DNA of 63,477 nt, counting the filler, from Dugesia japonica (taxonomy: Eukaryota), in NCBI GenBank assembly GCA_001938525.1. It is 6 parts of 6 records of this genome, joined end to end, with 100 filler letters (N's around TTAATTAATTAA, not from the genome) between each part and the next. Parts side by side here need not be neighbours in the genome. Positions count along the whole stretch, not along the records: positions 12,732 to 24,902 come from MQRL01201313.1; 5 more parts are not named here. One strand, given 5' to 3'. This document shows positions 3,253-53,192 of this stretch, one piece after another. A program made the translations under genes and the position numbers. The number at the start of each line of letters is the position of its first letter. Positions within the stretch are counted from its first letter, which is position 1. The notes beneath the pieces are model-generated. The model was not told the DNA's origin and made no database searches. It saw nothing but the letters and a program-made list of their open reading frames with translations.

Positions 3253-3551
3253 AGTTTCTTTATAAATTGTTGGATTGAAAGATTTATTGTTAATAACAAC
3301 AAATAATATCGATAGATTGGGAGCCGGATTAAATAGAAATTGCATATCTAAGACGGGATACAGCATAGTCCCGCTAAATCCGGGGGAAAAGGAGGATCGT
3401 GTTACTAGAGAGAGTAATATAAATTTCTGTGGTTGCTGGGTATCATCCCCCAGACAGAAAAAATATATGAAAGAAGAAACAGTGGAGATTAAGAGTGATA
3501 ATGAAGATCAATATAAATCCAAACAACATCAAAAAGCCTAGTAACCCAACA

Positions 3552-8000: not shown

Positions 8001-8816
8001 TCCCTGTTGTATGATTCATTGTTTCCGTATCTACCTCTTAGTCGTTGAAAGTCTTGACTGATGTGACCCTTTGTTCCTCATCTAAAACATTGAATTCTCT
8101 GTTTCTCCAGGCATTCTCTGCTGACATGTCCCTCTGTTACACACGTCCAGCATTTCATTCTTTGTCCTAATCAACAGTCTCGTTTCCTGTGACCTTCCTT
8201 TTTGCATTCCCAACATACTATTTCTCGGTTTCTTATCATCCAAATTCCTTGTCCTCCTTCTCACTGATTCCGATTTCCTCCATATCTGCCGTCATTCTGC
8301 ATCGTCTCTCGTTTCTCTACTCTATGTAATAATATTAATGTCTTCTACCTTTTCGATTTTGGGTAGCAGTACCTCTACTTCTGCTTTTCTATTTCCTGCA
8401 CCTTTGACCAAAGGTTTTGCTAATAATTTTTTTGTGAATAACTTTTCTACTAACTCTTCCATTTTCTTTATATACACCATATCCTCCGCCTACCTTTGGT
8501 AATCCAGCACTTCTCGTAAATCTTTCACTACGTCCCTCTCTTTACTAAATCCTTTCCGCAATCGACATTGAAACCCTTCTGTTTCCACGAATGTCTCGAC
8601 ATATTTCCCCAATAATCCTTCATCTATCATACAAGTGACTAGTCTTTCCTGTTCTCTTTTGTTTACTATTCCTTTCACTTCAAAATATAATTCACATTTT
8701 CGTATAAATTTTTCTACATCGTCCTGTCTTTTGAATATTTTCGGCATCAGTTGGTCTGTTATAGCGTCTGTGTTGACCGCCGCCATCATGTTAGGAGATA
8801 ATGAATTTTCTAACAT
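5048..8816 (-). mobile_element. Ty3/Gypsy retrotransposon internal region (gag-PR-RT-RH-IN), decayed
   Basis: Gag MPKIF...EKFIRKCELYF; three CCHC knuckles (about 8040-8220, third degenerate); protease LLNAGAGMN; RT WNTPLVC, IPFGIA, YLDDILIFS, YLGHII; RNase H DASFN and KELLA; integrase HHKSNGKIER...GRYEGPY. Gypsy domain order. Confidence 0.95.
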
Positions 8817-9289
8817 AAAGAATGGATTAATAATAACAATAATACTTAATATTAGGATTAATAACGTACTAGTTGATTTATTAATATTTAATGTAATATT
8901 TATATTTAATGTTTAAATAATAGCTAACTATTAGTTAGTCAGAGTAATTATTACGAATGATTTAAGAATGATTTATGTAGATAAAATTTATTAACAAAAA
9001 TTATTAAACAGTTACAATTATATATAATAATATGATTAATGTAAAATAATAACAATAATACTCAGAGACCAAATATATCAGTATATCACAAATATTGCTT
9101 TCTAAGTTAGTATTTCTAATTATCCACAACCACAACTGATAATACAAGAATAATAATCACTCCTAAATTATTGTTGAATTTTAATACTTATTTTTAAAAT
9201 TACTACCCCGACGGTAATTTATTATTAATCTTTAACCGATTATTAAAACAATTGATATTAATACCACTATTATTATTAATCCCTTTTCA

Positions 9290-12459: not shown

Positions 12460-12631
12460 AGTAGATAGATAGTAGCAGGGATAGCCACCTGTGTGCGAAC
12501 CCCCACCCCGCCGTGACGTAACGAAACGAAACATAATCCTAATGTATTTAGTCGACAATTTGAAATTGCACACTTATTAAGTAATATTACATAAGTGGCT
12601 ATCAATTTTTCCTGTGTATTTAGTTGGGAAA
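12460..12631 (+). mobile_element. Polinton/Maverick-type terminus
   Basis: Starts AGTAGATAGATAGTAGC, then a C-run and the ATTACATAAGTGG motif shared with the 24784 terminus (similar motif at 33370). Runs into a gap. Confidence 0.65.
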
Positions 12632-13089
12632 NNNNNNNNNNNNNNNNNNNNNNNNNNNNNNNNNNNNNNNNNNNNTTAATTAATTAANNNNNNNNNNNNN
12701 NNNNNNNNNNNNNNNNNNNNNNNNNNNNNNNTTATAATTACTTTTCTTTTTTTTCAGCGTCTTTTACCAATCTTTGCATCCTTTATTATTTTACCATTTT
12801 TGGTGTTCTAGCCCAACATATTATTAGTAATATTGTCTGAGAAGCATTTAATATTAATATTTCTCAAAGCGATTAATATTGATGTTCATATTGGTCGTAG
12901 GAAAATTCACTTAAAAATTTGAAAATTTAAACAAAATAAGTGTTATTATCGATTTTCTTTGAAAAAATGCATAAAAATCAATAATTTCCTAATTTTAAAA
13001 TAAATCTGAAAAATCAGTAAATTTAAACAAATCATAAAAATCAATTAATTTAAAGAAAAAAAATTAAACATTAAAACAAAAAATATTAT

Positions 13090-13990: not shown

Positions 13991-14805
13991 TTATTCTTAT
14001 AATAGTGTTGGGTGCAATAACTGGTTTAAAAAGAAATTATAACCAGGGGCATAAATCAGAAACAATAAAGTGAAGAAAAGGAAATCAGAGAAACTAATTA
14101 GGAATATTTGTCATTTTGATAAAATTATAATGATTATATCAATAAAAATCGGAAGTAAATGCAAAATGAAGAAAGAAAATATCGGGTGGATATAAAATTA
14201 GCCCTAATCAATTCTAATAATTAAAGGAAGTATAATTTATTACCTAAAAACAAGGAAACTATCATTAAAATAATGATTAATTAACAAGTAAAAAATTAAT
14301 TAATTTTGGAATAAAAAGAAATGAAATTAAGCAAAAATCTGTTTTTTAAAGATATATTTGCTCTAGAAGACCACAGAAAACCCCAACAAGAAAATTCGGA
14401 AAGAGATAGTACCTGTCAGACAAAGTAACGGGCAATTGAGTTTTCTAACGAAAAAGCCCTAACATTATCAGGAGGGTCTAGAAAAGGGGTTGAAGAATAG
14501 GCCAATAAGGGGCCAGAAAAACAACGAAAAACAAAGACACGAAAATCAGCCGGTGTCCTAAAAATAGGCACTAATAGTGCGGTTGAAAATTGTCAAAAAG
14601 TTTGGAGTTTTAGAGATATTACCAATGAGAAAAAAATGGCAAAACAAAAATAGTAAGCAAACAGGAAAGTAGTCGGGGTGCACATAAAAACCTATAAAAG
14701 CTCCACAAAATTTAATTGAAAAAATATAGATAACAAGACAACTTTTTTCATAAAATTAACTACGTTGAATTTATTCCCAAAAGGTTTTTACCTAATAAAC
14801 CCAAT

Positions 14806-14990
14806 TGTTGGGGTCCCACCTGAGTTGGATCAAAATATTTGTGGCTGGGGAAAAACAGCCCTCAAGGGACCCCTTTCAAGAATTTAACCTAACGTCCCTA
14901 GGTTAAGTATTCAGCTTATGGTGGTTGACCTCTCTCTTAATGGAAGGTTCACGCCCATAAGCTTTTTATTTGGGTTCAATATTTTCCCTT
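14806..14990 (-). ncRNA. Conserved structured terminal (U5-like) RNA domain, copy A
   Basis: Stems AGCTTATGG/CCATAAGCT, GGCTG/CAGCC and GGGGTCCC/GGGACCCC covary with copies B, C and D. Confidence 0.75.
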
Positions 14991-15033
14991 AAATTACACA
15001 AAAATTTCAAGTCAATGATACTCGAAACATTTA

Positions 15034-15428
15034 TTAGTATGACATTTCTAATTCGTCTAGCGCGCCAGGGTCTAGCCACTGGTCCGGATTAGTTCCTATA
15101 AAACCAAAGGCAGCAACATCATCGTTGTCGTCCCAAGGGACCCAATCTGGGTTGCCAATCTGGCGAGAAAGATCGACGATATATGGTTTTAAAAATTCTA
15201 TATTCCTCAGTAGCAGTTGCTTGGTTTCTGCTTCCAATGCCTTGGATTGGACGACTAGATTGCTCTGCTTCTTTACTATTAAATCCAACCTCTTTATCAA
15301 TCTATCCCTCTGGGCCAAATGCTTAAGTAGAGCCCGGTCTGTCTTACGCTTTAAGTGTCTTTCGGCCAGAAGGCAACGCATGATGCGATGGCACCCTCGC
15401 AGGCTATTTGGGAAGTCGATCCGTGGCC
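15034..15428 (-). CDS. LTR exon d (basic helical protein with W-D-D-N-D-D...WLDPGAL tail)
   Basis: Acceptor TCTAG|GG (phase 1), open to TAA overlapping AATAAA. Homologues at 27651-28024 and 51083-51435. Confidence 0.75.
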
Positions 15429-15570
15429 CTAGACAATTAAATGTTAATAAAAAGATATAATTAATTGATTTTAATCACAACCAAAACCCATTTCAATTAA
15501 ATCAGAGTAACACGTGTGAGGTAAAAGAATTTTTATTAGCAAATCCTTTAGTTACATATACATAAAGAAG

Positions 15571-15938
15571 CTAGCCAGAGGATGCCGATTTGGTTTGGGT
15601 ACTTTTACTGACCACAAGAGGTTCTAAGTAAGACTTTTCTCTAAGTAACAACACGTCGGCAACCAGTTCATTTTCACGGACATGGCTGGACCGGATTATC
15701 TCGGCAAATGACTCAATCTGTTTCTTCCACACTCGTTCTTGTGTGTCGGAGGCTTCGGCTTCTTTCCTAAACATGGCACGTTTTTTCTTATAACTGGATA
15801 CTTTACTGTTGGCCGCAGCTACTTCAGCCTTCCAACGACGTTTTGCTAGCCAATACAAATCGCTAGTGAGTTTGAGGTTCTCACTGGTATCTCGGATTTT
15901 CTTAGTAAGAGCTGTAGGACGGTTTAACGAGGAATGCA
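15571..15938 (-). CDS. LTR exon c (coiled-coil, HSSLNR...LAKRRW...QERVWK...TQT)
   Basis: Acceptor TTTAG|TG (phase 1), open to TAG, AATAAA about 35 nt later. Homologues at 27141-27499, 50803-50964 and 2925-3252. Confidence 0.75.
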
Positions 15939-16103
15939 CTAAATAAAAATAATAATAAATTTTTTCTCAAAGTATTAACATCCGAATTACTGACGCCTAT
16001 GTGATTTTACTTAAGGCATGAAAATTAACAAACCGTCTGTGTATTAATATTAAAGAAACCTTTATCTATAACATTACAACTGGAGAAAGTAGATTAAGAC
16101 TAA

Positions 16104-16469
16104 TTAAAACACATACCTAATAATCAATTTCGATAACAACAAATGAACAATAAGAGTCAGGGGTTGAGTTTTCGGGAGGAGCGGTGTTTTCGGCATCCTC
16201 TGACCCGGCGGGCTCCCTAGTTCCCCAGAGCATGTTGTTGATAAACGCCTGTACCACTGGTGGGGGTGCTGGAGGTTGATAACGAAACGAGGTAGCGAGT
16301 ACAATCGCTCCCCAAAACTCTGGATACGCGCTACCGCGGCCTCGACGGGAGGTAAATTTGACCTATCACACAGAATTCCCGCGTCACGATGATGGGGGTT
16401 GTGATGTCGTCGGAAAATCACGCGATGATTCCCTCGATCTATTATACGTTCCCATATAGATTCCATCAC
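16104..16469 (-). CDS. LTR exon b (WERIIDR...IFRR..NP..RDAG...SNL)
   Basis: Acceptor AATTAG|GTG. N-terminal half homologous to about 26553-26670; the C-terminus may be frameshifted. Confidence 0.6.
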   Translation of the reverse strand: MMESIWERIIDRGNHRVIFRRHHNPHHRDAGILCDRSNLPPVEAAVARIQSFGERLYSLPRFVINLQHPHQWYRRLSTTCSGELGSPPGQRMPKTPLLPKTQPLTLIVHLLLSKLIIRYVF

Positions 16470-16568
16470 CTAATTAAAGAATGAGAATGATTAATACGAA
16501 TAATATAAAAAAGAAAAAGTTTATAAGTAACTATAAAAACGCCAATAAAGTTGTGCATATATTTCATT

Positions 16569-16781
16569 TCATGGTAGCAATGCTGACAAAAGGAATCTTT
16601 CTGCGTCTAAGTCGACTCATGTAATTAAGGGGAACATTTCTGCAAAGCAACACAGATTCGTTTCGTCTGGATGCTCAATTCTCTCTTTAGTCAATAGATG
16701 AGCTATGAATTGCCTCATTCTAGCGGCCCGTCGCTGTCGTCGGATCCACTGTAAGGTATGGCGCAGTTCTGACGGCAATAA
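16569..16781 (-). pseudogene. LTR exon a (TLQWIRRQRR...EHPDETNLCCFAEMFPL)
   Basis: Acceptor TTTTTAG|TTA, one internal TGA. Homologous to 26194-26382. Not in the ORF track. Confidence 0.65.
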
Positions 16782-17586
16782 CTAAAAAGATGATAAATAA
16801 CTAGAAGCTGTAATTAGAATTGAGGTTCTCTCAGTCTGTCTAAAGATATGCAATAGGTATGTCTAACAGTGCGAACTGTAATGCTAGTTCCAACACCGAA
16901 ATCCCATTAACGGTATTCAGGAGAACTAGAAAAGAAAAATTACTGTTAACAGTATATCTATTATCAAAGACTGCTCATAAAGTGATTGTTAATCATGGCC
17001 CTGAAAGTAAATATAATACTAATGATGATAGCACTGACGCCACTCATCTCATCTTAATGATTGGAATGGTCATCATCAGCCATAAAATAGAAAAAATATT
17101 TATTGACCATAGTAGCCATGAGCTCGATTATTAACCGTGATTTTGACCCGCTACTAGGATTAATTACAGTATCGTTAATAAGGAGACTTATCACGATCAA
17201 GGACAACAGTCCACTGAATAATATTAATTAACATTGGCGATCATTTTCTAGAATCTGACGTATTCTACTAACTGGCTCATCGATTCCTATGATTGCATTG
17301 TAAATCGTTTATCACTACAACTTCATTATTGATTTATCGATGACGTATTGGAAGCAGGAAAAATGATTTATGTCTAGAGTCGACTTAAATTCATCAGATC
17401 TTTTGATTCGTAGACCATATGATCAGGATCATGCTACCCAAATACATAGGTTCGATTACAAATTGAAAAACAAAAAAAACGTGTTAGATGTTATGGAATA
17501 TAACTGTATATTAAAATGTTATTAAAGTATAAAATTGCATCATATTCAACTTGTAAGTTATATTAAATCCAAGTTACATGACAAAC

Positions 17587-18070
17587 ACTTACTATAAAAT
17601 TTTTCAACAGGAATTTCTGCAACAGTTGTGAACCACAGGGGTCAAATGAATTATTTCCTTGGACAGTTGATAACGAGAGTTATGTTTTCTGGTTTTCCGA
17701 TGCGCGATAACTGATGATAGCAACTTTTAATATTTTCTACTTTGCTGTAAAAATTCTGCTGTCGTTCTCCTTTTGAATTATAATAAATATTAAACGGTGT
17801 TCCTTGTAAAGGCTTAGTAAAATTTATTTTTGATGATCCCTTTCTGTTAATTTCATGATTCCTTATAAATGAATTTTCCTTACACCCCAACTTCTTACAG
17901 ATTCGCTGGTTATTTTTAACTGGAGTTTTAGGCTTACTATTGGTTCTAGTGCCAATTCTCTAAAATATGTTCAGAGTTTTGGAGCCGCAATTGGTGGTTA
18001 TTTTTGGAATGACACATGATAATTGTGTCTTTGTTTTATTTTTATTTTTAGGTTTCTTATTGGTCCGATC
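17587..18070 (-). promoter_or_regulatory. LTR promoter and leader exon donor (copy A)
   Basis: Repeated CCAAT, AACAAAG, TTAAAAATAA, then GGGGTGTAAG and a TATA-like box near 17865; donor GTAAGT at 17592. Colinear with 42891-43460. Confidence 0.6.
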
Positions 18071-19271
18071 AAGGAAACCCTGCAGCAACCTTCCGGATGG
18101 TGGTAGGATTTTCTTTTTAACAAATTCTAATGCTTCTTACAATTTTCTTTCTGGATTTTCTTACCAGAATTCTCTTTGATTTTCCTGAACGGAGTTATTC
18201 GGGTAAAACGGATATTGACTAATTTTACTTCTTTTTATTTTCAAATTAATTAATATTTTTTCTGTTAATTAATTATTCTCCCATAATGATTTTCTTGATT
18301 TTTATTATGAATTAGATAATTTCTTCTAATTCCCAATACTAATGTATGTTAGTTTTATGTTATCCGGTTCTTCTTATCCATCTCCAAGTTTATTTCGTTC
18401 TTTTTCCAATGGTTATTTCACGCTTTATTTTCTGCATTTCATTATTGGTAACTATAATGGTCCTGTTGTTCTTTTGTTGATTTGGGTTTTTTGGCCTTAT
18501 TTCCTTTTTTTAACGGGCGTTTCACCCCAACACTAATATTTGATATAAAAAACAATTTTAACCATTTCTGCACTGTATTACAAAATCTTTACAAGGTAAA
18601 TTGCCTCACTAATTAGACAAAGAAGAGAAATAAGAAGTTAAAGTAGTACCGTTTGAAAATAGAATTGAATAAATTTTGTATTAAAGGAAAGAAATTAGCT
18701 ATCAATTAATTCAGAGACAGTACGTCATTTAAGGAAAACCCCAAAATACCCTGTTGCAGGAATCTAAAATATAAAAGTAAGTAATGTATGTTTTATCTAG
18801 TATTAAATGTTTATTGATTTCATTTATAATAAAATGAATTAAATTGATTTTCTCCTTGACCCTAAATTTTAAAATTTTTTAACTCACCAAGTTCTCAATC
18901 ACCTGCTATCATCCAATGTTCTAATTGCTGTTAAAAATTCAAACCCGTTAAATTAAAAAACCTTTTTTAATATATTCAAAACCAAATTTGACATACAGTA
19001 ATAAATATTTATACAATTTAAAAGTTATTATAAATTCAATCATATCACAACGTTTGTTTTGTAATATTACATGTATCAGAAAAACAATAACTACAATCTG
19101 ATTTAAATACAAATAAGTGCAGTTTTGAATAACTTTTATAAATAATGATTCCAAATATATACATGTTTACTAAAAGTGAATTATTATTATAATTTTAAAA
19201 GTCAGGCTTAATACAGAAAAATAAGTTGAATTTTGCAAAAGAACAAATAATGTGATTTTAAAATATTAAAA

Positions 19272-19853
19272 TTATATTAATGGTGAAAGATCTGATACAG
19301 TTATGGATTTTTTAATATACAGCCGAGAAAACAACAGAACAATTATGATGAAAAATAATATCAGAAAAATAATTATTGCGATAAGAAGGATGACTTGAAA
19401 ATTGTATAATTTTTTTCTGCTATGACATTTGTCATTAGAATGAATAAGACCGCGTTTGTCGTAATTTTCATCATAACCTATACAAGATTTATTTCCAAAT
19501 AAATATCCTTTACTTGTAAAACTGCTTTTGCAATATTCATCACATTGTTGATTATCATCCAATCTAAAACTCAATTTATATTTGTATATAGATTTGCACT
19601 GGACACGATGAACATAGAAAACAGAATTTCGATTATTTGGAATACAATCCTTTAGTTCTATTGTATCTTCGACAAATTCATTCCCAATGAATTTTATTAA
19701 AGTTATTTCCATAATTCGCTTAAATGGGAAATTCGGACAGTTGGCAATCCAAATAACATGGTTGCAATCAATAAGTTCGAAACGAAAATTTAAATTGAAC
19801 ATATGACTTCTTTCTGATAATAAAATAATAAAGAAACAAATAGTCCAATCCAT
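19272..19853 (-). CDS. Orphan type-I membrane protein (signal peptide, Cys-rich ectodomain, TM helix, short tail)
   Basis: Intact 193-codon ATG ORF in AT-rich DNA. Hydrophobic N-terminus, 8 ectodomain Cys, long hydrophobic segment followed by basic residues. Confidence 0.7.
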   Translation of the reverse strand: MDWTICFFIILLSERSHMFNLNFRFELIDCNHVIWIANCPNFPFKRIMEITLIKFIGNEFVEDTIELKDCIPNNRNSVFYVHRVQCKSIYKYKLSFRLDDNQQCDEYCKSSFTSKGYLFGNKSCIGYDENYDKRGLIHSNDKCHSRKKLYNFQVILLIAIIIFLILFFIIIVLLFSRLYIKKSITVSDLSPLI

Positions 19854-21036
19854 TAAAAAATGTAAAACGTCTACAAATTATAATGAGTAAATAAAATGAC
19901 CAATCAGATATTTGTTACCATAGTTTCATTTCTTATTGGTGAGCTATTGATTAAATCATACATTTTTATGCAAATTATCAAACTTTATAATTAATTCAAA
20001 GTAGGTATCGAAATATTATTCATTAATAAGTATAATAATTTTCACTAGATTAAGAAAATGTCTGTAAAATCAAAATTTGTATCTAGAGTTGGCTAGCATT
20101 CAAAAAATTTCTTTGTTGTTAGTTAATTTTAGAAACAGTGATATTAATGCCAAATAGTGAGAACCAATATATAGTTAAAATATTGATTACATTAAAGAAA
20201 AAAATTCTTCGACATACTGTTTGTTATTTATAAAAGAGTAACATAAATTGCCTTAACTCTTGTAAATTAATTTAATCCTTTTAATTTTAATTTCTGCATT
20301 TTAATTTATTTTTCGAATATTTATTTAATTCTTATTCTTATTTTATCCATAAATTAACAAATAACTGCGACTAAGAATTTTAAAAATATTTTAGAATCCT
20401 GTTGGATTCTTAAGGATTTGAATGTAAAAGTTTATTTTATTCATTATGTTTTCTTATGGCTTATGGATTCATTTCTAAATAATATTGGCTTTGTCTAACA
20501 GGTTCGTGACAAAATAGTTATTTAAACATATTATGACGCATATTACAATTTTGGTTGTTAATATCCCCAAGTACTACTCTATATGGTTTCCGGACTCGAG
20601 ATTGACAAAAGAGAGGATGACTATGAACGATTTTGTTCATTCTCGCTCGTCCGCCTCTGGACTAATTGTTTTCCTTTAATTTTTAATTACACTACTTATA
20701 ATTTAATGAATTTCTTTACTAAATAAATAACTAAAATTAAATTTACCATCAACTAAAATGTATTTAACGCTTATAAAATTATCATTTAATTAAAATTACA
20801 AAAGTCAACTTTTAATAATAATATTAATAATAATAAAAGAACAAATAATGGCATTGAGTGAATTATTTGCCATCGATAATTTGATCGAGCTTTTAAAATC
20901 ACCTTTAAATATGATATACTTAGTGAAAAACGTCTCAAATGATGAGTTGATTTGCCACCACGATTTTGTTAAATGACATCTTTTTAAAATCTATTCATTT
21001 CTTGTTTTTTAATTTGTTTTTACTAAATGTATTTAA

Positions 21037-22700
21037 AACTCGATTTACCAAACCCGTCAAATTGACCGGTTTCGTAAATTCAGAGTTGATAAATCTATAA
21101 ACAAATATTTTATAGTAGAAATATATATGGAATATTAAGCATATATAAAAAGGTGTAATTATCTGAATTTGTTTTTTTCTAATAACCTCAAATTACGAGT
21201 GTTGGTATGTAGTATCCCTATTTTTTACCGATACCCGTCAAATTGACAGTTTCATTATACTAGTAGTTTTTGCTCTGAAATACACAGTTTTCCTTTCCTA
21301 TCTTTATCAAACTAGTTTATGAGTGTAGACAATAATTTTGCGTAGGAGGATACCTGTAGTATGCAAATGATATTATATGTATATAAGTCCCGCACATGTA
21401 TGACATATAAAAATCATGTAAACAGCAAAATTGTTAAAGGCGTCATATTTATGGTTAAAAAATGGGCCCAAACCTTTTCTCCCAAACAATGAATAGAAAT
21501 AAATTTATGGAAATCCTTAGATTTATACGATTTGATAATAAAGATGAGAGAAATTAACGTTTAAAAACAGATAAATTTGCACTAATTTCTAAAATGTGGA
21601 ATACATTTATAGACAATAGTCAGAACTGCTTTAAACCTAACGCGTACACAATTGATGCACAAATATTCCCAACCAAGGCCAGGTGACGATTCACATAATA
21701 TATGCCCCGGAAGCCCGACGAATTTGGCATAAAACTTTGGTTAGCATCGGATATAAGAAGTAAATATCTCATAACTGGATTTCCATATTTAGGCAAAGAT
21801 AACACACAAGTGTTGGACATACCTCTAATTGAATTTGTCGTCCTCAAACGAATGGATCCTTATTTAAGCTGCTGGTGAAATGTAACAAAAATACAATTTG
21901 TTTACAAGCCTTCCACTTGCGAAAAAAACAACTCTAGTTGGTACTATACGTGCAAATAAAAAAGAATTGCCAGCAGCCGCAAAAGCAAAAAAGGACAGTA
22001 TGCAAAATTTTCTTCAATACATCATAAATTAGAAAACCGTATCCTAACCATTTATAAAAGCCAACCAAAGAAGAAGGTGCATCTGCTCAGTTCAAAACAT
22101 AAGTTTGTAAAAATTGAAGAAAATTCAAAACGCGTCTCAGAGATAACTACATTTTATAATCAAACAAAATATGGAGTCGATGTTATTGACCAAATCGCAC
22201 GAAAGTACAGTGTGAAAGCCAGTTCCCGTAGATGGCTACTTCAAGTCTTCTACTACATACTATATTTAGCCGCTATTAACGCGTGGATATTGTATAAGGA
22301 GACTTCCAGAGTAAAGAAAACAAGGAAAAACTTCATTTTTCAATTAGCTGACGAATTGTCAGGTGATGATGAAGGTACATCAACAATGATTTCAATATAC
22401 AGTCAGACAAACAGACACACACTAATAGGAAATCCTGTCAAAATGGATTTTGCCAAAAAAATAATAATATGATATTTGCTCGAAATGCATCTAATATGTT
22501 TGTGGTAAATGTACCTTAAAAACATCATATATATGCAAAAATTGTTGTGAATAAATGTTAATACATTAATTAAATATTTGTTTTTATGTTAAAAGTTAAA
22601 AAATGAATAATATTTACCAAAAATCTTAATTTACTGAAAGCCGTCAAAATGGCGGGTTTCGGTAAATCTAGGTATACGATCAATCGCGGTAAAACTAGTG
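21037..22700 (+). mobile_element. piggyBac transposon, decayed
   Basis: Transposase motifs MNRNKFMEILRFIRFD, YMPRKPDEFGIK, FYNQTKYGVDVIDQ, SRRWLLQVF and C-terminal Cys. Imperfect TIRs (TTAA-AACTCGATTTACC ... GGTAAAACTAGTG-TTAG) and repeated CCGTCAAA motifs. Confidence 0.9.
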
Positions 22701-24783: not shown

Positions 24784-24902
24784 AGTAGATGGATAGTAGC
24801 GCAGAACACCACGCATACGTTCAGTAGACCCCCCGCCCCCTATACGTAATCGGATTATTACATAAGTGGTTTTGAATTTTTCTAATGTAAATAGGCGGCG
24901 GC
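24784..24902 (+). mobile_element. Polinton/Maverick-type terminus
   Basis: AGTAGATGGATAGTAGCG...ACGTAATCGGATTATTACATAA...TTTTTCTAATGTAAATAGGCG, an inverted near-copy of 33263-33370. Confidence 0.7.
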
Positions 24903-25149
24903 NNNNNNNNNNNNNNNNNNNNNNNNNNNNNNNNNNNNNNNNNNNNTTAATTAATTAANNNNNNNNNNNNNNNNNNNNNNNNNNNNNNNNNNNNNNNNNN
25001 NNAAATTATGAACATATACTCGCATATCGTAAATCTGTGAAAAAACAACAAACTCATAAGCAAGTAGGTGTGTACCCAGGGAATGAGTCACACTAAATAA
25101 GCCAATATAACAGTATGCATACACACGTATGAATAACAGGTTACAACGG

Positions 25150-28100
25150 GACAATCGTTAGTCTAGTTGATTACATCCATCACTCATTCGTAATCTGAAC
25201 CCGTAATTCAAAATGTCTCAATTCCAATGGAGTATCCTTTGTCAATTAAGCGTAAAACGAACTCTATCTAATCTCGATATGACATTTTCTAGAATAACGA
25301 TGTGCCTCTTCACTACTAATGCTACTACATTTACTCTCAGCAAAATACTCTATGCCACAAACTATCTACTAGTGCAGGCTGCAATTTCCAAATCGATGTT
25401 TATGGAATCATCTGTAGTCCTTAATAAAAATTTTGTCCAATGTAGTACAAATTGTATTTGTTTTCGTTTGAAACTATTACCATTAATTATTTGTTTTTGT
25501 TTTAAGACATTGTTTGACATATTTGGGTAATCCAACGAAAACTACCATCAATCCGAAAATTTGTATCAAGGTTTATCACGTTCAATTCAGGTAGTGAAAA
25601 CAACAGCATTACTTCATGTTTTTTTTCTACAGTGACAAGTATGATAGCTAAGTATTCAGTAAATCAATATGATGATCAAGTCCTTTTGAATATCTCGATT
25701 TAATATGATCTTTTTGTTTGGGTCAGCCTTATTATTATAAGAATCGGCGGTTTTTCTTTCTCAAGATTAACTGGATTAAGATTACTGCGATGGTAATTTT
25801 TATTTTTTGTTGCGACACTGATAAGGTGGTTCTATGAACTACTATACTCACAACATCTGTCGCGTAGAGTATAATAACTACCCGGTTAATGCAAGTAGAG
25901 TTAACCGTAATATTATTACTATTAAATTTACCACACAATTATAGTTAGCACTATTAGTATTATTATTACCCTAAGTGTATTAAAAGGATTAATGTTAGTA
26001 CCATTAACAGTGTTATTATTATTTTTTAAATATTTATTACTAGTAGCGGAGTTAGTATGATTATTGGTCATATGTGTTACAATGATATATAAGCATTAGG
26101 ATGATTTGACCTTGTTAATTCCATTTGCAAAGGTAAAGCTGTGACAGGTCAGAATATATCACAGTAGATCACTCCAATATTGATTTTATTTAGAGCATGT
26201 CAACTTAGTTGAGTGATACACTCCGTTTGATTCGAAAACAGCGTAAGATGGCTCGGACCAAAAAACTTATTGGGAACTTATTGTTTCCTCATCTGGTGGA
26301 ACATCCTGACAAAACTGACTTGCGCTGTTTCGTTGAGATGTTCCCATTGAACCTCAATGTAGACATTGATGAAGCAATCTAATCATCTATGAAATTGAAC
26401 TCTGCTAGTCATTATAATTTTTACTAAAAATAAATATTACTTCAATTGTTTTGGTGTAGCTTTGCCATTAGATTTCTTTTATTTAATTTTCTCTTACACC
26501 ATTTTAATGTAATTTCAATTTTATCATTATTAGAGACCGAAATAATTCTAAGATCGAACATAAATGGGAGATCGTCTTAGATCGTACATCTGGCAAGACC
26601 ATATTTAAGCGATTTAAAAACCCTATAATAGGGATGCAGGAGTGTTTGTAGATCACTCCAATTTGCACGACGGAGTAGCAAATAAAGAGAGACAGATGGA
26701 CGATGCTGATCGACTAGATGTTTATTATTGGAAAAGGCCCAATCATGCTCGTACCGTCTACCATGCAGTCACGTCCACACACATAGACGTTAACGGCGAA
26801 ACACAAACCATACGGACGTGGCAGGAAGGCCTATCGGTCGTCGGTCTTACTATCAATCAGCTGCTATTTTTTTCAACCTTGCCGCCTTTGTACATGAATA
26901 TCTGTGGAATATTTGTAATTCCAAAGAGAACCTTAATATTGAAAACTCTGGTTGTGATACCAATAATGGCCCCATTTGATTCTTTAGCTGGGTGTCCTTT
27001 TGTCGTTCGTAATAAAATTATGCTAGTTAATTAATGTCTACTTGTCATCTTACTTGATCTTAATAAAAATCATCTTTAAATAATAAGTGTTTTCGGAACT
27101 GTGAGTTTCCGTAATTATTAATGATATTTTTTGTTTATAGTACACTCGTCCTTAAACCGATCATCCGCACCTGTCAAAAAGATAAGAGAATCAAGTGAAG
27201 ATCTGAAGATGACATGGGACTTATATCGTCTCGCGAAACGACGTTGGGAAGCAAATACTGCAACCGCGGACAGTAAGGTAAAAAGATATAAGGCTAAGTG
27301 CATTACCTCTCGTAAAGAAGCCGAGGCTTTTCATGCACAGGAGCGTTTGTGGAAAAAACTAGTCGACTCTTTTGCCAAAATTATCCGGTCCCTTCATGAC
27401 CGTGAAAATAAACTGGTGAACAATATCCTGGAGTTAAAGAAGAAAATGCCATTTGAACCGCTAATGACAGATAAGGCAACACAAACCCCGCACTCATGAG
27501 CTTTGGCATTTCTTTGTTGTAAATTTATAAATAAAAAATTAATATTATCAAACAATATAGTTCTTGTTAATCTATTTATTTATCTACATCTTAAGCTATT
27601 AATTAATCAATCAAACCATCTTAAATTTGAATTAATGTTAATTGTTTCAGTGTCACGAATCCAACTTCCAAAAAGCTTACGCCGATGCCATCGTTTGATA
27701 CAAAAACTACTGCTTGAGAGGCATATCAAACGCCAGAACAAACGTGCCCTTTTAAAGCTCCTCACTTAAAGGAATCGACTCATTAAGAAACTAGATACTA
27801 TAGTGAAAAAACAGGGTGAGTTAGCCGAACATGCAAAGAAATTGTTACAACATAAAATTGATTTCCTGAAACACTACATAGCAGATCTATCTAGACAATT
27901 AGTAAACAAGGCGTGGATTTGTTGGAATGACAACGACGATGAAGCGGCTTTCGGCTTTTTAGATTATGAGCCAACCCAGTGGTTAGACCCGGGCGCTCTT
28001 ACTATATGTAATGTCAACAAATAAATCTAAATTTTTTAACAATTTATTAATTGATTTTTGTTAATTTTAAATAAGGGAAAATTTTGAACCCGAACTAAAG

Positions 28101-28258
28101 GTATACGTGTGTGCACCTCAAATCAGTGTTAAAGGTCAGCCACTCTATGCCGAAAATCTAAGTAGGAACTTTAGATTAAATTCTTGAACGGCTCTCCTGA
28201 GGGCTGTCTTTTCCCCGGCCAAGTTTTTTCTACCCCAAACTCAGGTGGAACCCCAACA
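25150..28258 (+). mobile_element. Coding-LTR 3' portion (copy B) with exons a-d and terminal RNA domain
   Basis: Exon a 26194-26382, b about 26553-27034, c 27141-27499, d 27651-28024, colinear with copy A. Ends CTCAGGTGGAACCCCAACA. 5' end lost near the gap. Confidence 0.85.
27141..27499 (+). CDS. LTR exon c (copy B), intact
   Basis: TTATAG|TA acceptor; HSSLNRSSAPVKKIRESSEDLKMTWDLYRLAKRRW...KATQTPHS*; AATAAA near 27530. Confidence 0.75.
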
Positions 28259-29197
28259 CTTGATAACAATAATCTTGTTAGGCATGTATGTTGATTTTGA
28301 AAACCTATTAAACAGTGATGACAATATTTATTTGATTGTAAGAATGCGGATATTTTAGAAATAGCACTGAAATGATTATTCTCTAAATATATAAATATTT
28401 GTTTTTCGAATAAATCATTTCCCTTGAATATGATTGATTTGTGATTATTGTGAGTATAAACTATTACTCTTACATTTAAAAACAATTCAAATTGTTTTAA
28501 ATCATTAATATACGGTTTGAATAGGATCACCACGCCTAATATATCGTTTTCTATTATATTTCAGTTCGAAATCAAAATAATTTTTATAAGTGTTATTATC
28601 ATAAGTTAAAGCTACTACTATTGCTATAGCCAAATATATAGTACCTGTATTATCAATCATATTAACTGAATTTGTGGCAAAGTTTTTCAATATTTGATTA
28701 GTTGAATTAATACCGCTATAGCGCAGATCTATTTGTCCTGACCAACTTAGTATTGGTATAAGTAGAAATTCAAATTTTATTGTATCAATATCTATTTTCT
28801 CTGCTGATTGTAAAACATGGTTTAATTTTTAAAAGAATTCAATTACTATATTCTCTCTTCGTCCTGTATGAAAATAACTTTTAGGGTTTAATCTAATTAA
28901 AGTACGGTAAGCAGTTATCTTTACAGTGTAATTAGGATTATTACTTGTAATGTCATCTAATATGAATTCTAAACAATTTTTAATATTTACTTCAGTCATT
29001 GTATAAGGAGAAATCGTATATGTGTGAAGAATACCTCTATATTGTCTTTAATAATGTGAGCCAAGGTGGTTGACTCGGTTGAAATCGTCTATATGTGTTT
29101 CAGCAAATAAATCGTCTCTAAATTCATGTTCCTCGAATGATAGTGTATTATTGATAGCTCTCCATTCGTCTAAATGAGAATTAGAGTTCGCTGACAT
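28259..29197 (-). pseudogene. Polinton protein-primed DNA polymerase B, N-terminal remnant
   Basis: YLAIAIVVAL...LKQFELFLNVRVIVY...IFIYLENNHFSAISKISAFL..KYCHHCLIGF resembles the Maverick pPolB N-terminal region. Cut off by the end of LTR copy B. Confidence 0.7.
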
Positions 29198-32861: not shown

Positions 32862-33162
32862 TGTTGGGGTTCCACCTGAGTTGGAAAAATTGTGACTGGG
32901 GAAAAAACAGTCCTCAGGGGAACCCTTTCAAGAATTTAAACCCTACCGTCCCTATGGTAGGTTTTCGGTTTATTGCGGTTGACCTTACCCTTGATGGAAG
33001 GTGCTCACCAATAAACCTTTCGTTCGGGTTCTATAAGTTCCCATTAATCTTTGAACTATTTTTAGGAATTAATATTTAATATTACAAGAAGAATTAACTC
33101 ATTTTGATGAAGTAGACATTTATTATTAAGTAACAATTACATAAGGTTCACAGCGTCCGGAT
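32862..33162 (-). mobile_element. Coding-LTR 3' tip (copy C)
   Basis: TGTTGGGGTTCCACCTGAG terminus, full terminal RNA domain and end of exon d (DPDAVNLM*). Truncated by a gap. Confidence 0.85.
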
Positions 33163-33262: not shown

Positions 33263-33370
33263 CGCCTATTTACATTAGAAAAATACAACCTCAGTTATGT
33301 AATAATCCGATTACGTCGGGGGGGGGGATACTGCATGTGTGCAGAGGTTGACCGCTACTATCTATCTACT
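33263..33370 (-). mobile_element. Polinton/Maverick-type terminus
   Basis: Reverse complement begins AGTAGATAGATAGTAGCG; homologous to the 24784 terminus. Confidence 0.7.
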
Positions 33371-40799: not shown

Positions 40800-42245
40800 A
40801 TACATATTTATATATACATATCAGTCATATGAGATTCAACACGGAGGTATTTTAATAAATTTGTTCCTTGAAAACGACCAAAATTTACGGTGGCGTCTAC
40901 ATTAGCCGGGACCGTATTTCATTTCGTGATAACCATGATATTAGATGATAAAATTTAACAATTCCGTAGTTTTGATAACAACAGGGTAATTATAGGGAAG
41001 ATAATAATAATGATAAGTGGAATTTTATTAACAGCGATAATGGTTATACGGGAAATATTGTTAAAAATGTAGTATCGATAACAGCAGTAACGATAAATTA
41101 TGTTGATAATGCGTGTGTAGTGGATTGGCAGAGTTTTGGGAGTGATAATGTGTCAGTGTAATCATGTTTATAACAAGCTTCAATACTGTTGCTGGAAAGA
41201 TCTATAAATTCATGAGTTGATTTAGCAGAGTTGTTGAGTGTTAATCCAAGTGCAATTATTTGCCCGATAAGTAGCCGTGTTGTTAAATCGGCTTATTATG
41301 GCTCATTATGAGGAAAAATGGGAAGGAATTCTCTTCTAATATTTACAGCTAGTGATGACAAGATCAGGAATGACGGCAATGAATATATTTGTTTCGATGT
41401 GATACACTGAATTTTATAAGGGAGAAAACGACGTATAGATAAAACACTTCTATTTTAGACAGCATTAATTGTACAACTACAATAACAGCAAAGCATTCTT
41501 ACTTGTTGAATAAACATATCTGCAACGGGTATCCAAAAATAATAAATAAACAATGGTTGGAAATTTTCTGTAATTGTAATGAAGCTATGAAACTCGTTCT
41601 GTTTTTATAGGGGTGGTTTTACACTTACTTCTTTTAATTGTACCTTATGATTCATTTTTCGCCGTTTTATTGTGGGGGTATTTTTAACTTCTATATTTTC
41701 TTGTTCTTTATTGGTGGGTATTTTAAGCAATCACCTGATTTTTTTATGCTTTGTTCTGATTCCTTTTTGTGGTCCCTTATTGGCCTATCCTCAGTACTCC
41801 TTTTCTTGTCTTCCTGAGGGTTTTTTGTTTTTGAAATTAACAAAATCGAATTCCCATCTTCAAATTCTATTCAATTTTCTTTAACCCTATATTTTCTAAT
41901 TATTCTGAACAAATTTATTCGACTTTTCTTCTTTTCTCCTCAATCAACTCTTGTTTTATACGAACTAATTAATTAATAATTTCCTTATTTTTTCTATTCT
42001 ATTTTTATTAAATTTAATTCGATTTTTACTGAACTTTAATTATAACTGATCGGGTTTCCTCGTCTTTCATATTCTAATTATTATCTTTATTTATTTTATT
42101 ATTTTCTTGATTAATTCCTAATTATTTCTAAATTAATTTACCAGAAGTTTGATTCCTTTTATATTATTCTTAATTGATTAAAACTTCACTTGTTTGGGGT
42201 CTCCACTTTTTCATCGTATCTTTTTCTTGGTGTTTCACCTTAACA
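40800..42245 (-). mobile_element. Coding-LTR 5' portion (copy F)
   Basis: Reverse complement begins TGTTAAGGTGAAACACC. CCAAT boxes, CCTATAAAA near 41610, CCGTTGCAG...GTAAG leader donor near 41500. Left boundary approximate. Confidence 0.7.
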
Positions 42246-42890
42246 ATAATAAAAATAACAAATAATAATAATAGTAATTATTATAATCATTATTATTGTT
42301 GGTGTAGAACACCTGATATAATAAATAATAATGGCGATAGATAAGGTCGAATTCGAAGAGAAATACAAAAGAAAGGGGAAGAAAGAATCTAGAAAATGAA
42401 AGATCAAAGACCAGTTAACGAAAGGGACAATCAAAGAAAAAACCAAGATTAGGGAACTAAAGATAGGAAATGATCAAAAAATTCCTGAGACATTAATGAA
42501 GAAAAGAAATGATGGAAGATACAAACAGACTGAGAAAACTAAGAAATGACAATTCATTACACGTAAGAAAAAAAATCGAATGAAATTAATAATTAACATA
42601 CATGAAAAAAATTAATTATTGAAGAAAATTAAAATTAGATTAAACTTCGGCTTAGAAATGAAAAATGTCAATTTAATTAATAAATTAAGAAAAAAAATAA
42701 ATCAGACGAATGAAAAAAATAAAATTAAATTTATATGAAAAATACGAAAAAACGAGGACTTCTCAGTAAGAAAAAATTAATGGTTAAGAANNNNNNNNNN
42801 NNNNNNNNNNNNNNNNNNNNNNNNNNNNNNNNNNTTAATTAATTAANNNNNNNNNNNNNNNNNNNNNNNNNNNNNNNNNNNNNNNNNNNN

Positions 42891-43110
42891 AATAAAAATA
42901 GAACAAAGACACAATGGTCAGGTGTCATGATAAAAATAGCTACCAATTGCAGCACCAAAACTTGAAGAAAATTTTGGAGAATGGGCATTGGAGCCAATAG
43001 AATCAGAAAAAGGCCGATCTAAAAATAATTAGCAAATCTAGAAGAAGTTGGGGTGTAAGGCAAACCCTATAAAAGGACCCCTAACTTTAGCAGAAAACAG
43101 TCAGTTATTT
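42891..43110 (+). promoter_or_regulatory. LTR core promoter (CCAAT, MEF2-like, TATA, Inr)
   Basis: Two CCAAT boxes, CTAAAAATAA at 43019, TATAAAA at 43068 and TCAGTT at 43101. Confidence 0.6.
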
Positions 43111-45289
43111 TTTAAAACAAAACATTAAATTTTGTACTGTCATATACGCAAAAGGAATTTTCTGTGTAAACCTGATTGTGGACTGCATTAACCTACGGAT
43201 ATTCTGAGAAAAAATTAACTAGTTAACATCCAAACAAAATTCATTCAGTAGTTATCGTGCGTCAACAGTATCGTGCTATAACAGAAAAATAGTAAATTAA
43301 ATTTCTATTTACCTTGCGGATAAATTTCTTTATTTCAAAAAAAGGAAAGTAAAAAAATTCCAGACCCCAGATTCAATTCCAGGAACTGCCAAATTAGTAG
43401 TATTTGTTCACGAAAGGAAACCCGTTGCAGGAATCCTTTAGTTCGAACGAAAAGTAAATTATTATTTTAATTATGTTAGACGGATATAATATAAAAAATG
43501 GAATATAATTTATTTTAATAAAATTAGCTATGTTATAATTTTAATTGCTATTTTATTTATATAAATACTCATCGCTTTTGATAGGCTATAGAAAGTTCCT
43601 AAAATAACGAAGTTTTACTTTTTGTACTAAAAAAAACATTATATGAAAATAGATGTAGTTTTCACTTTAATCCCTCATCCCTTTGAATATGTCAACCTCA
43701 GGAAAATCATTTGATCAGACTAGATTCTATTCAAGTTAAGTTAGCAACGTCGGTGCTTAAGACGAAAGTCGGGTCAGTTCGTTTTCTTTGGTTATGGCAA
43801 TGAATTTAAAAAACAGATAAATTCACACGATAATCTATAGTACTAAAATTGTAAAAAATACCACTGTAATTACAACCGTTTATTTAAAACGAGCACAAAC
43901 AAAAATATCTAAAAAAATACCTCGATGAATCCAAATTTTAAGTAATTCCAGGCATGTCTGTAAGGAGAAGATCACTTATTATGTTAACTAAAGTCTACCA
44001 ATAACGAATTCGATAAATCCACTCAGGATAGAATGAATTTCACTACCGGAATGTTTTTCAGAAAATCGAGATTCAGAATAATGAGATGTAGTTAGCATGT
44101 TAGTGATAAGTATTGACACTGATAAATATGTCATCACATAGAGATGATGCCGTTGTTCAATCGATATATCCACTAAGCAGACCTACAACCAACTGAGCAG
44201 GCACACATAGCCTAATGAAGACCGCCGTAATTATGCACACCCTGAGTTATTTCTAAGCAACGATAACGCGCAAAGAATTAGATCACAGAAATTCCGGAAG
44301 AAATGACTTTTGTTTAAAACGAATGGTATTTTTGTTAATTTCATTATTGTCACTACTAACGTTCTTGAAATTGCTGATAATATTCTTATAGAGATAAATA
44401 CCGATTTTATGGCTACGGGTGACAATTAGTAACAATTAGTAATGTCATTTTAGTTAACAGCAAACCTGGAAATAATTCGACTATAAATTCTATTATTTCT
44501 TTTTTATAATTATTATTAGTATTATTATCGTTATTATCATTATTATTATTATTATTATTAATATTGTGAGGTAAATTTAATAGACAGGTTGATTCGGGGA
44601 ATTTTTTGTGGCAAATCAATAAAAGAATAATAATTTNNNNNNNNNNNNNNNNNNNNNNNNNNNNNNNNNNNNNNNNNNNNNNNNNNNNNNNNNNNNNNNN
44701 NNNNNNNNNNNNNNNNNNNNNNNNNNNNNNNNNNNNNNNNNNNNNNNNNNNNNNNNNNNNNNNNNNNNNNNNNNNNNNNNNNNNNNNNNNNNNNNNNNNN
44801 NNNNNNNNNNNNNNNNNNNNNNNNNNNNNNNGAAATAAAATTTTAATAGAAGTATAAGAATATTTTGAAATTTTAAAATGAAGTATAAAATTAATAAAAT
44901 TAAAAGTAGAATAAATATTTTAATAAAAAATTTGAAATTGCCAGAAATAAATTCCTTGTCAAATTTGTTTGTTTAATCTCCTTTTGTTATGAGATATATT
45001 ATTTACAACTCAAGTGTTAATTTGAATGGAACCAAATAACAAAATAGAAGATTCTGAGGAAACTACTTACAAATATTATGATTATTATCTCGCTATCAGT
45101 GTTCCAACTATCAATATTATTATACCAAGAACTCCTTTAGCATTATTGTTATAGTATTAAACGTACAATTAATATTGTAATTATAATTATTACTATCATC
45201 ATTAAACTATTACAGATATTACTAGTAATTTTGAAATAAACAATTAATTTATTGATATTGAATTTATCCCCAGTATTACTTGCTCATGA

Positions 45290-50802: not shown

Positions 50803-51082
50803 CAAGAGAGGGTGTGGAAGTCCCAAGTCGAAACCTTTGCCACGATTATCAAATCCTACCAAGAGCGTGAAAATCAACTCTTAGATAATATATTGAATTT
50901 GAGGACCACTATCCCATTAACTCCCCTCTTGATTGATAAAGGTACTCAGACTAACCGTTCCTGAGTTATCATATCTACTATTTGGTTGCTTTTAATAAAT
51001 TATTGTATTTGTATCTTTTTTTTAATTTGTTTCACTAATTTCAAACCTAACTCTTGTCAACTTAACTATAATTTTTATTTAG

Positions 51083-51435
51083 TGACACGAATTAATTTCC
51101 CCAACAGCATCCGAAGGTGCCACCGTATTATGCGACGCCTCCTTATTGAGAGACACTTAAAACGCAAGGCGGATAGGGCCATCTTAAAACATTTAGCCCT
51201 ATGGAACCAACTTATAAAAAGATTGGATTTAGTAGTTCACAAACAGAACGACTTGGCGATCCAAACCAAAGCCCTAGAGGCAGAAAACAGGAAGTTACTG
51301 TTACGAAAAATAGACTTCCTGAACCAATATATCGCCGATCTCTCCCGCCAAATAAGCAATCCAACTGTAATTCAATGGGACGATAATGATGATATCGCCG
51401 CCTTTAACTTTTCGGTGACCGATCCGGACCAGTGA
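51083..51435 (+). pseudogene. LTR exon d (copy D)
   Basis: TTTAG|TG acceptor; RINFPNSIRRCHRIMRRLLIERHLKRK...WDDNDDIAAF; TGG>TGA near the end. Confidence 0.75.
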
Positions 51436-53192
51436 TTAGATCTAGGGGCCTGGAACTGCTATTAATAATTATTGTTTGTCTATGAAATAAAATGTATATA
51501 ATTAATATCGTACTTTCTTTCTTTTGCTGATAATATTAGGGAAAAGAATGAACCCGAATACAAAGGTTTATGGGTGTGTACCTCCCATTGCGAGAGAGGT
51601 CAACCACCCTGAAATGAATACCTACCCTAGAGGCGGTAGGATAAATTCTTGAACGGGTTCCCCTGAGGGCTGTTTTTCCCTAAGCCGCAATTTGACTATC
51701 AACTCAGGTNNNNNNNNNNNNNNNNNNNNNNNNNNNNNNNNNNNNNNNNNNNNNNNNNNNNNNNNNNNNNNNNNNNNNNNNNNNNNNNNNNNNNNNNNNN
51801 NNNNNNNNNNNNNNNNNNNNNNNNNNNNNNNNNNNNNNNNNNNNNNNNNNNNNNNNNNNNNNNNNNNNNNNNNNNNNNNNNNNNNNNNATAATATATAAT
51901 TAATTATAAATTATAATTATAATCAAAATAATAATTTGTAAAATCTTTTNNNNNNNNNNNNNNNNNNNNNNNNNNNNNNNNNNNNNNNNNNNNTTAATTA
52001 ATTAANNNNNNNNNNNNNNNNNNNNNNNNNNNNNNNNNNNNNNNNNNNNAATTATTCAATTATTAAAATAATTGTTTTTCTTAATATCTCAATTAAAACA
52101 AAGAATTTTAAATTAAAAATATTTAAAAAAATGGAAAATTTCTCAATAAATTCTGCATTTGAACCATGAATTGAGATAATTTTTCATGTTCAGCATTAGA
52201 ATTGAATAAAACTTTATCATTACTATTGAATAGAATACAAATGATTTATACTAACAATAAAGAATAAATATTGTAATTCCATAGTGATTAATAGAGAGGA
52301 GTGATTGATGAAGTCAAATACCAGATAATAATTGTTTTTTCAAGACAATTCTCTATATCATGGATCAAAGTTTATATATGATTGTATAATGAATAAACTT
52401 TCTGAATATTTGGATCATAATTATACAATAAAAATTATATAGTATGAAAAATCTAAAATTATTAATAAAAAAATAAATTCAAGTGAAAAAAACTGAGTTA
52501 TAAGTAAATATTTCTTCCCCGCCATATCTAATTGCAATTTAGTTAGGCTCAATGAATGAATGTTTTTAATAGTTATTATGCAAATATATAGTTAAGTATT
52601 TAGCTTATTTTTCTTTTGAAGATTTTCGCTAACCAGTAATTATCTAATAATATTTATTTGTTTATATTAGTAGTTTCTGGATTTTTAGGGGGCCTATAAT
52701 GATTGTTGGGTCGACTGAGAGCCTATGATCCATTATTAATCAGTTAATTCTACATATTTTCAACATTATAATTGCCTTTGTAAAACAAAGAAACGAATTT
52801 AACTCAAACTAACACATTATTACATTTATATCAAATGTATTCCTGATGCTCTTTTGATATCCATCCTTCAAATTTAAAGTGTGGAACTTTTTTCAATAAA
52901 CTATTGTATTATATTCGCGGTTAAATTATTAATTTTATAGATTTAAAATATTAAACTCTTAGTCTAAGTTAGTTATGAACCCATAAAACCCGATTTGTTC
53001 GTTTTTAACTAGTCAGGTAAATTTTTATTTGCGGTATTTATCGATTTTCAATACGAAACCTGAAAGATTTTATCTGAGGTCATTTTAGAAATGATTGCAG
53101 AATTAGGAATTTATGTATAATATTATTTTTAATTCAAAACATATTCAAACAGGGTAATTAAACCCAATTATATACTTCATAAAAGTATACAC

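Follow-up and report, generated by a model that had tools for sequence, protein, structure and literature searches.

A long-terminal-repeat-like unit of the planarian Dugesia japonica with four small coding blocks and a predicted splice-completed start codon

Regulatory proteins encoded in or near the long terminal repeat (LTR) are known from complex retroviruses, the tax and tas-type transactivators being examples. In mouse mammary tumour virus (MMTV) the Sag and Naf proteins are also encoded in or near the LTR and are produced from spliced RNA or from a second promoter (PMC9412291). The MDG1 group of Drosophila carries two accessory small open reading frames (ORFs), sORF1 and sORF2, before gag, and a short RNA has an alternative poly(A) site past sORF1 (PMC11952523). 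In errantiviruses of the springer subclade (Gypsy), the start codon of env is completed by splicing (10.1101/2023.08.03.551782). Among planarian elements, Burro of Schmidtea has an internal region of up to 25 kb and a total length of over 30 kb; Burro/GYPSM1 carries accessory ORFs and has been proposed to be provirus-like (PMC6431247). The present study concerns a repeat unit of 3727 bp, copy A, in a stretch of 63,477 nucleotides from the Dugesia japonica assembly GCA_001938525.1 (six parts joined with filler letters; hereafter the window). The unit is probably the solo LTR of a giant planarian Ty3/Gypsy-type retrotransposon with an array of spliced accessory genes.

The length of the unit fits the LTR of a few kb implied for Burro/GYPSM1, which belongs to the same planarian lineage (PMC6431247). 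However, the extra domains of Burro/GYPSM1 are located in the internal polyprotein and in an upstream ORF, and no LTR genes are described in the accessible sections, the comparison being by description only (PMC6431247). The two ORFs of MDG1 lie between the LTR and gag on unspliced RNAs, whereas the four blocks found here, a to d, lie within the terminal unit and are predicted to be spliced (PMC11952523). In springer the leader supplies AU to one env exon; in the Dugesia unit it would supply the single base A to at least two target exons (10.1101/2023.08.03.551782). MMTV has one LTR ORF, located in U3, and no array of terminal exons with separate poly(A) signals in the sections available (PMC9412291). 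In these accounts, none of MDG1, springer and MMTV has a terminal-exon array in its repeat. No description of the exon layout was found in the literature searched; Repbase entries and Grohme 2018 lay outside the search and may already catalogue the repeat. The accessible parts of PMC13524379, PMC11410931, PMC13238120 and PMC10954484 contained nothing on LTR-borne genes. The features of copy A are given below in window coordinates.

14806..18532, minus strand: copy A, whole unit, 3727 bp, with 9-bp TGTTGGGGT inverted ends
18533..18537, minus strand: 5' flank ATTAG, first half of the target duplication
14801..14805, minus strand: 3' flank ATTGG, target duplication, 4/5 matching
18056..18066, minus strand: CCAAT box; its distance to the 5' end is 463-497 nt in A, D and H
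17861..17888, minus strand: GGGGTG box and TATA-like site (CCTATAAAA in C, D and H; weaker in A)
17593..17840, minus strand: predicted leader exon, no ATG, final base A; 5' edge placed from the TATA site
17587..17592, minus strand: predicted leader donor GTAAGT
16570..16781, minus strand: block a, about 60 aa with a basic N-terminal half; copy A lacks an ATG where the alignment starts and has a stop in frame at 16617-16619
16104..16469, minus strand: block b, ATG at 16466, 120-aa frame, of which the first ~55 aa match copy B
15571..15938, minus strand: block c, 121 codons after TG, predicted A/TG start; seems intact in A
15592..15612, minus strand: VSKSTQT, LC8-type motif (DKATQT in B, DKGTQT in E)
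15532..15537, minus strand: AATAAA, 34 nt past the c stop (31 nt in B, 30 nt in E)
15034..15428, minus strand: block d, 130 codons, with basic region, heptad run and acidic-aromatic tail; acceptor of A without TG
15030..15035, minus strand: AATAAA overlapping the d stop (same in B; 20 nt later in E)
14806..14990, minus strand: conserved terminal segment with covarying helices, U5-like

Read along the minus strand, copy A begins with TGTTGGGGT at 18532 and ends with ACCCCAACA at 14806. The two ends form a perfect inverted match of 9 bp, with an imperfect likeness reaching about 20 bp. Besides copy A, parts of seven further copies (B-H, listed below) are present in the window. A 5' end is present in five copies (A, C, D, F and H) and a 3' end in three (A, B and G); E is a further exon-bearing piece. 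The TG..CA termini are alike across these five starts and three ends. The target duplication of 5 bp with one mismatch was obtained from the sole complete copy, A. This copy is nested in the older copy D on the opposite strand, and D is continuous across the insertion; because A interrupts D, the imperfect duplication is credible. In public DNA contigs the summed depth, which is no copy number, was about 3,300-3,700 inside the 3' end versus 9-10 on the flank in two runs, and 0 on the flank in run X5. The repeat is abundant and has a sharp boundary in the DNA contigs. The 9-bp termini and the one-mismatch duplication, both claimed in an earlier note on this DNA, were borne out by the sequence and by these contig boundaries.

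Some further observations were made at the insertion sites. A contig bridges the copy A insertion at 14775-14805 in runs X1 and X3 and none does in X5; polymorphism or a hole left by filtering is possible. All five 5' ends lie in AT-rich (ATA)n-like tracts (ATTAG, AATAG, ATTAT, ATTAT and TAATA), and the flanks in DNA contigs end likewise AT-rich, which points to a target preference. One contig of run X8, with a depth of 35, joins a 3' end to a 5' start over 11 AT-rich letters (18537 to 14804). This joint may mark a tandem, two insertions next to each other or the junction of a circle. Since an AT-rich target preference allows two insertions in one target, the joint can be explained without a circle.

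Blocks a-d occur in the same order in copies A and B, as the earlier note had described. Coding blocks had also been placed in D, C and G, where tblastn showed promoter and leader or the 3' end only. The GC content of the blocks was 0.45-0.50 and that of the AT-rich spacers 0.20-0.25 in copy A, and the pattern recurred in B. A third copy of d and of part of c is present at 50803-51456 in copy E. For a, c and d the ratio of the proportions of nonsynonymous and synonymous differences (pN/pS) was 0.20-0.47 in all seven pairwise comparisons (pS 0.74-0.96, pN 0.18-0.36), with bootstrap upper limits of at most 0.67 and a third-position excess at p values from 0.017 to 2e-8. The pairs are not independent, and pN/pS alone is given because dS was saturated in six of the seven. 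As the alignments behind these values were protein-guided, the test was repeated on nucleotide stretches free of gaps; of the six frames, the proposed one alone was open in both copies, and it also had the highest identity. Amino-acid identity between copies was 49-67% at saturated synonymous sites, and each of these three blocks ends at a conserved stop. On this comparison of copies, a, c and d are clearly protein-coding under purifying selection. The retention of amino-acid motifs claimed before, with pN/pS well below 1, holds for a, c and d; for b it extends over about 55 residues only. The codon test covered a, c and d, and selection on b is weakly supported, these ~55 residues aligning between A and B at 41% across the frameshift of B and the remainder being unaligned. 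A second frame of 81 aa was seen at 16117-16362 (minus strand) over the end of block b, stopping before a donor-like GTATGT at 16116; it was not found in copy B. Splicing of b to c via the donor-like site was rejected, the phase being wrong and the position not conserved in B.

Damage is common in the window. In-frame stops were found in block a of A and B and in block d of B and E, block b of B has a frameshift, and block a of A is without an ATG at the aligned start. The copies are decaying yet the blocks are conserved, so selection acted during replication of the lineage and not on these insertions. The inserted copies in the window are decaying and appear silent.

The promoter and leader donor proposed earlier gained from three further copies. 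The order CCAAT - GGGGTG - TATA - GTTGCAG..GT donor recurs in A, C, D and H, with the CCAAT of C falling in a gap. The TATA-like site of copy A is located at 17861-17869, and the GTTGCAG motif before the leader donor is common to A, C and D (H by eye). The four leaders contain a single ATG in total versus 12.0 expected from dinucleotide shuffles, and none of 5000 shuffles was as low; intron controls (n=4) had 6-12 ATG each, and upstream control regions (n=2) were likewise ATG-poor, with 1 and 2. The base before the leader donor is A in all four copies, compared with 52 of 137 in the background. TG directly follows the acceptor of c or d in three of five cases, and acceptor-like sites followed by TG made up 4/14 inside the element vs 5/130 elsewhere (p=0.005, post hoc test). 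Block a has an ATG 3-4 nt past its acceptor in B, and block b likewise in A. No conserved Met is present in c or d, in agreement with the earlier claim that both are without an N-terminal ATG. The first Met of c is residue 55 in A or 23 in B, and d of B has no Met at all. Since the N-terminal residues of c and d are conserved without a conserved Met, both blocks would need an upstream exon and therefore splicing. Exons of mixed phase cannot all be served by a single donor; with an A/TG start for c and d and own ATGs for a and b, the phase conflict is removed. Phase, as assigned earlier, is the wrong description for a and b, which have their own ATG near the acceptor in B and A, respectively. 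AATAAA was found after c in 3/3 copies and after d in 3/3, as claimed for most blocks; after a and b it occurs in B and not in A, and its chance rate is 19% of AT-rich 45-mers. In the first intron, TG also follows acceptor-like sites at 17214 (minus strand) and 25632 (plus strand); the frames there have 4 and 22 codons and may be remnants of additional genes. The idea that decayed exons are shared across first introns was rejected, as five copies had no homology to one another there.

In the proposed mechanism a single promoter would give an ATG-free leader, which would be spliced to any of the four terminal exons. Translation of a and b would start at their own ATG just past the acceptor, while for c and d the final A of the leader and the first TG of the exon would together form the start codon. 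Such a split start would mean that protein is made from correctly spliced RNA only. Every RNA would end at a poly(A) signal behind its exon. Of the products, d would be a basic-zipper-like activator with an acidic tail and c a long helix with an LC8-type tail.

Structure models of c and d, built from alignments of 3-4 rows, each predicted one long helix, covering residues 10-102 in c (mean predicted local distance difference test score, pLDDT, 86) and residues 8-92 in d (mean pLDDT 80). In three copies, the N-terminal half of d is basic, an L/I heptad run is present and the acidic tail contains 4-5 aromatic residues, a composition that suggests the layout of a basic-zipper activator. The tail of c carries [D/S]-K-x-T-Q-T in all three copies, past the helix end at 102. 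Such LC8-type motifs were found 5 times in 126,950 translated positions, and 3 of these were the block c copies. An LC8 motif beside a coiled coil has been described (PMC3078936), and many TQT peptides fail to bind LC8 (PMC6607443). The tail of c is predicted to be a candidate partner motif for LC8 (DYNLL). The products are likely to be regulators of the element itself, to judge from these predicted features. No homologues of d were found among 1482 candidates from a profile search of 5.8 billion proteins; phmmer against 1.84 billion proteins gave a single hit, a tandem-repeat artefact, and viral and metagenome contigs were blank for d. For c, none of 80 candidates was a homologue and viral contigs were blank, longer c fusions lying outside the search. 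Sequence searches of Pfam, PHROGs and PDB gave nothing above cut-off for the blocks and frames tested, and Foldseek returned 0 matches for the model of d, a single helix. Atlas hits scored 0.90-0.92 and were not informative, recognition being low. The terminal motif had 0 matches in metagenome contigs.

The conserved 3' segment of about 185 nt is 78% identical between A and B. Of 38 predicted pairs, 9 changed on both sides (1/500 shuffles; 0-2 when slid). Rfam returned three matches to the segment at E 1.2-3.1, far below the gathering score, with no ribozyme among them, and a hammerhead or retrozyme was rejected on this ground. At 37146-37153 (plus strand) a CCCCAACA end was seen; it has a few motifs reminiscent of the 3' segment and no BLAST match to A, and is perhaps a distant family.

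Expression was examined in three raw RNA runs, of which 6%, 25% and 25% were read. They gave 4, 82 and 9 reads, 95 in total and all partly aligned, with no read at 99% identity or above and four at 95-99%. In copy A no read covered b, c or d, and block a was reached by three diverged reads. The majority of reads matched 14847-14905 and derived from diverged relatives. Diverged relatives are transcribed through the 3' segment, and the copy A subfamily looks silent in the sampled RNA, which fits PIWI silencing of Gypsy-related repeats (PMC8532177). Poly(A) RNA reads of runs X11 and X14 match 14847-14905 only and then, by eye, enter a differing hairpin at the place of helix 3. Contigs of run X8 covered 27/30 bins including introns and had five joints, none with splice-type ends; this run may be DNA and was counted neither way. 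The earlier idea of one promoter serving several small proteins retains the selected blocks, the conserved stops, the promoter and the donor, while no spliced reads, RNA starts or poly(A) sites were found for it in these runs. The suggestion that solo copies keep expressing the proteins is not supported, given the zero depth over b, c and d and the stops, frameshift or missing start in most blocks.

The LTR-like traits of the unit are its short TG..CA inverted ends, the 5-bp duplication, the unlike ends, a putative promoter near one end and the 3' segment with its covarying pairs. A number of points weigh against a solo LTR with spliced exons. No spliced read and no leader-to-block joint, for which the earlier note had proposed to look, was present among the 95 RNA reads from the three partly read runs. 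Promoter, leader and exons are found together in copy A alone, the leader of copy H contains an ATG, and TG is absent after two of the five c/d acceptors (A-d and B-c). The covariation comes from four sequences and a structure derived from those same sequences, and folding z-scores were equally strong antisense and not significant for copy B. A purine tract precedes none of the five starts in the window, no primer site follows the ends of B or G, and no clear primer site was seen in the 11 flank rows listed from 22 contigs, where multi-contig rows can mask one. TGG at +3 of A was rejected as a primer site, as it belongs to the leader of the host copy D. With an LTR layout, full-length RNA must also get past as many as four poly(A) signals, and about 3 kb must be copied as first-strand DNA. 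The blank for primer site and purine tract would be expected if the copies are solo. The unit could instead be a stand-alone passenger, never joined to gag-pol, which borrows the retroviral-type integrase and perhaps the reverse transcriptase of a helper and itself profits from the small genes it carries, with no change to the exon model. We regard this as possible though unlikely. It would suit the lack of a primer site or purine tract at the eight window ends and in the flank rows listed, the imperfect end-to-end likeness out to about 20 bp and the X8 contig, which joins a 3' end to a 5' start as a circle or tandem would, and it avoids the problem of reading through the poly(A) signals. However, solo LTRs commonly outnumber full elements, and this excess, together with collapsed contigs hiding a shared internal region, makes the primer-site blank weak. 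The X8 joint also fits two insertions in one AT-rich target, as with copies C and H, which are 51 bp apart. In addition, known integrase-type DNA transposons have inverted repeats of 40-270 bp and, in animals, 4-bp duplications (PMC2836005). Ginger1/Ginger2-Tdd elements resemble the unit in TGTNR termini, the AT-rich targets of Ginger2, the 5-bp duplications of TDD-4/5 and the presence of introns, but they have inverted repeats of 40-297 bp and an integrase, where the unit has 9 bp and no integrase was found (PMC2836005). A Ginger DNA transposon was rejected on the repeat length, 9 bp perfect and about 20 bp imperfect vs at least 40 bp, and on the lack of an integrase Pfam match in the frames tested. 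A bolder proposal, a virus-like unit free of gag and pol that travels as a 3.7-kb passenger of giant Gypsy elements, with the splice writing the start codon and the products steering the helper or the host cell, is rather doubtful.

An LTR with exons in a long U3 could also be fed from elsewhere, either by a phase-1 coding exon in the internal region that gives the N-terminus of c and d, or by genomic RNA starting near 14990. MMTV offers a precedent, with Sag encoded in U3 under a second promoter (PMC9412291); early polyadenylation would be avoided, and acceptors without TG would be accommodated. It is nevertheless quite improbable, as visual inspection of four copies revealed no conserved promoter motif upstream of 14990, and a local leader fits both the TG enrichment and a leader sequence that has A as its last base and is free of ATG. 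Captured host exons or chance frames in neutral decay would agree with the damage in most window blocks, with the lack of RNA covering the blocks and with the low recognition scores of language models. Set against this are synonymous sites saturated at 49-67% amino-acid identity, the conserved stops and KxTQT, and the lack of a host homologue. Such neutral debris is very improbable overall; it is largely refuted for a, c and d, and may still apply to most of b. The solo LTR of a giant Gypsy-type element is retained as the best explanation. The Gypsy remnant at 5048-8912 was rejected as its internal region for lying 3.5 kb from the nearest copy with no linking signal; the nearby Gypsy remnants are insertion targets or unlinked.

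The further copies in the window are as follows.

14006..14805, plus strand: copy D, 5' part with promoter and leader start; TATA box at 14691; host of insertion A
18533..18782, plus strand: copy D, continuation, with leader donor at 18777
25003..28258, plus strand: copy B, with a (ATG 26197, stop 26206), b (frameshift near 26620), c, d (stop 27767) and 3' end
50803..51709, plus strand: copy E, with c end, d (stop 51433) and terminal segment into a gap
42297..43459, plus strand: copy C, with 5' end, promoter, leader and donor at 43454
41497..42245, minus strand: copy H, with 5' end, promoter, short leader and donor at 41502; head-to-head with C
32862..33162, minus strand: copy G, final 300 nt only, inside an older Gypsy pol remnant
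12732..12818, minus strand: copy F, 5' end into a gap; assigned by terminal likeness only

The 5' end of copy B was not seen, and a gap lies upstream. Copies C (42297-45289) and E (50803-51709) have the same orientation and stand on either side of a non-LTR retrotransposon at 45290-50780, which has a reverse transcriptase match and a weak Ulp1 match. C and E may be a single interrupted copy that has lost a, b and half of c. On the 3' side, copies B and G are flanked by older remnants of mobile elements and A by copy D. A different short repeat adjoins the assembly gaps near copies B, G and F (24784-24897, 33263-33370 and about 12470-12630). The 3' flank of B at 28171-28828 (minus strand) had no match in Pfam, PHROGs or viral contigs; we take it to resemble the N-terminal part of a Polinton-type polymerase. 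A 201-codon open frame at 19272-19877 (minus strand), with several cysteines and a C-terminal hydrophobic stretch, matches no family. Other sequences in the window are a decayed Gypsy gag-pol at 5048-8912 (minus strand), a piggyBac-type transposase remnant (PF13843) at 21960-22472 (plus strand), a second Gypsy pol remnant at 32200-32861 (minus strand) and an exon of the host gene slc16a-17 at 60856-61191 (minus strand), 95% identical to slc16a-17 of S. mediterranea, a likeness by which the host would be that species or a very close one.

A catalogued repeat of S. mediterranea, GLT2, presumably labelled Gypsy in Repbase, was also compared. SMEDWI-2 silences it, and neurons express it once SMEDWI-2 is lost (PMC8532177). 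On visual reading of its reverse strand, the GLT2 probe runs from an AT-rich spacer into a T-rich AG acceptor and on to TG, after which the frame stays open for at least 78 codons, the first 30 of them free of ATG (PMC8532177). This likeness, seen by eye and with no sequence link found, suggests that a catalogued repeat may share the layout. The GLT2 quantitative PCR primer had no match in the window at three mismatches, and six terminal motifs were absent from the GLT/GLT2 probes within 400 letters (PMC8532177).

If the unit is an LTR, a retrotransposon would have independently built accessory genes like those of complex retroviruses in its terminal repeat, with splicing gating translation, and each solo copy would amount to a portable unit of several genes that brings its own promoter. 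The predicted proteins match no known family, and the predictions of LC8 binding and of a zipper activator are directly testable. In planarians, loss of PIWI activates Gypsy-related repeats tissue by tissue, and DNA damage does not explain the resulting harm (PMC8532177). Proteins from abundant terminal repeats would be a testable contributor to the harm caused by PIWI loss.

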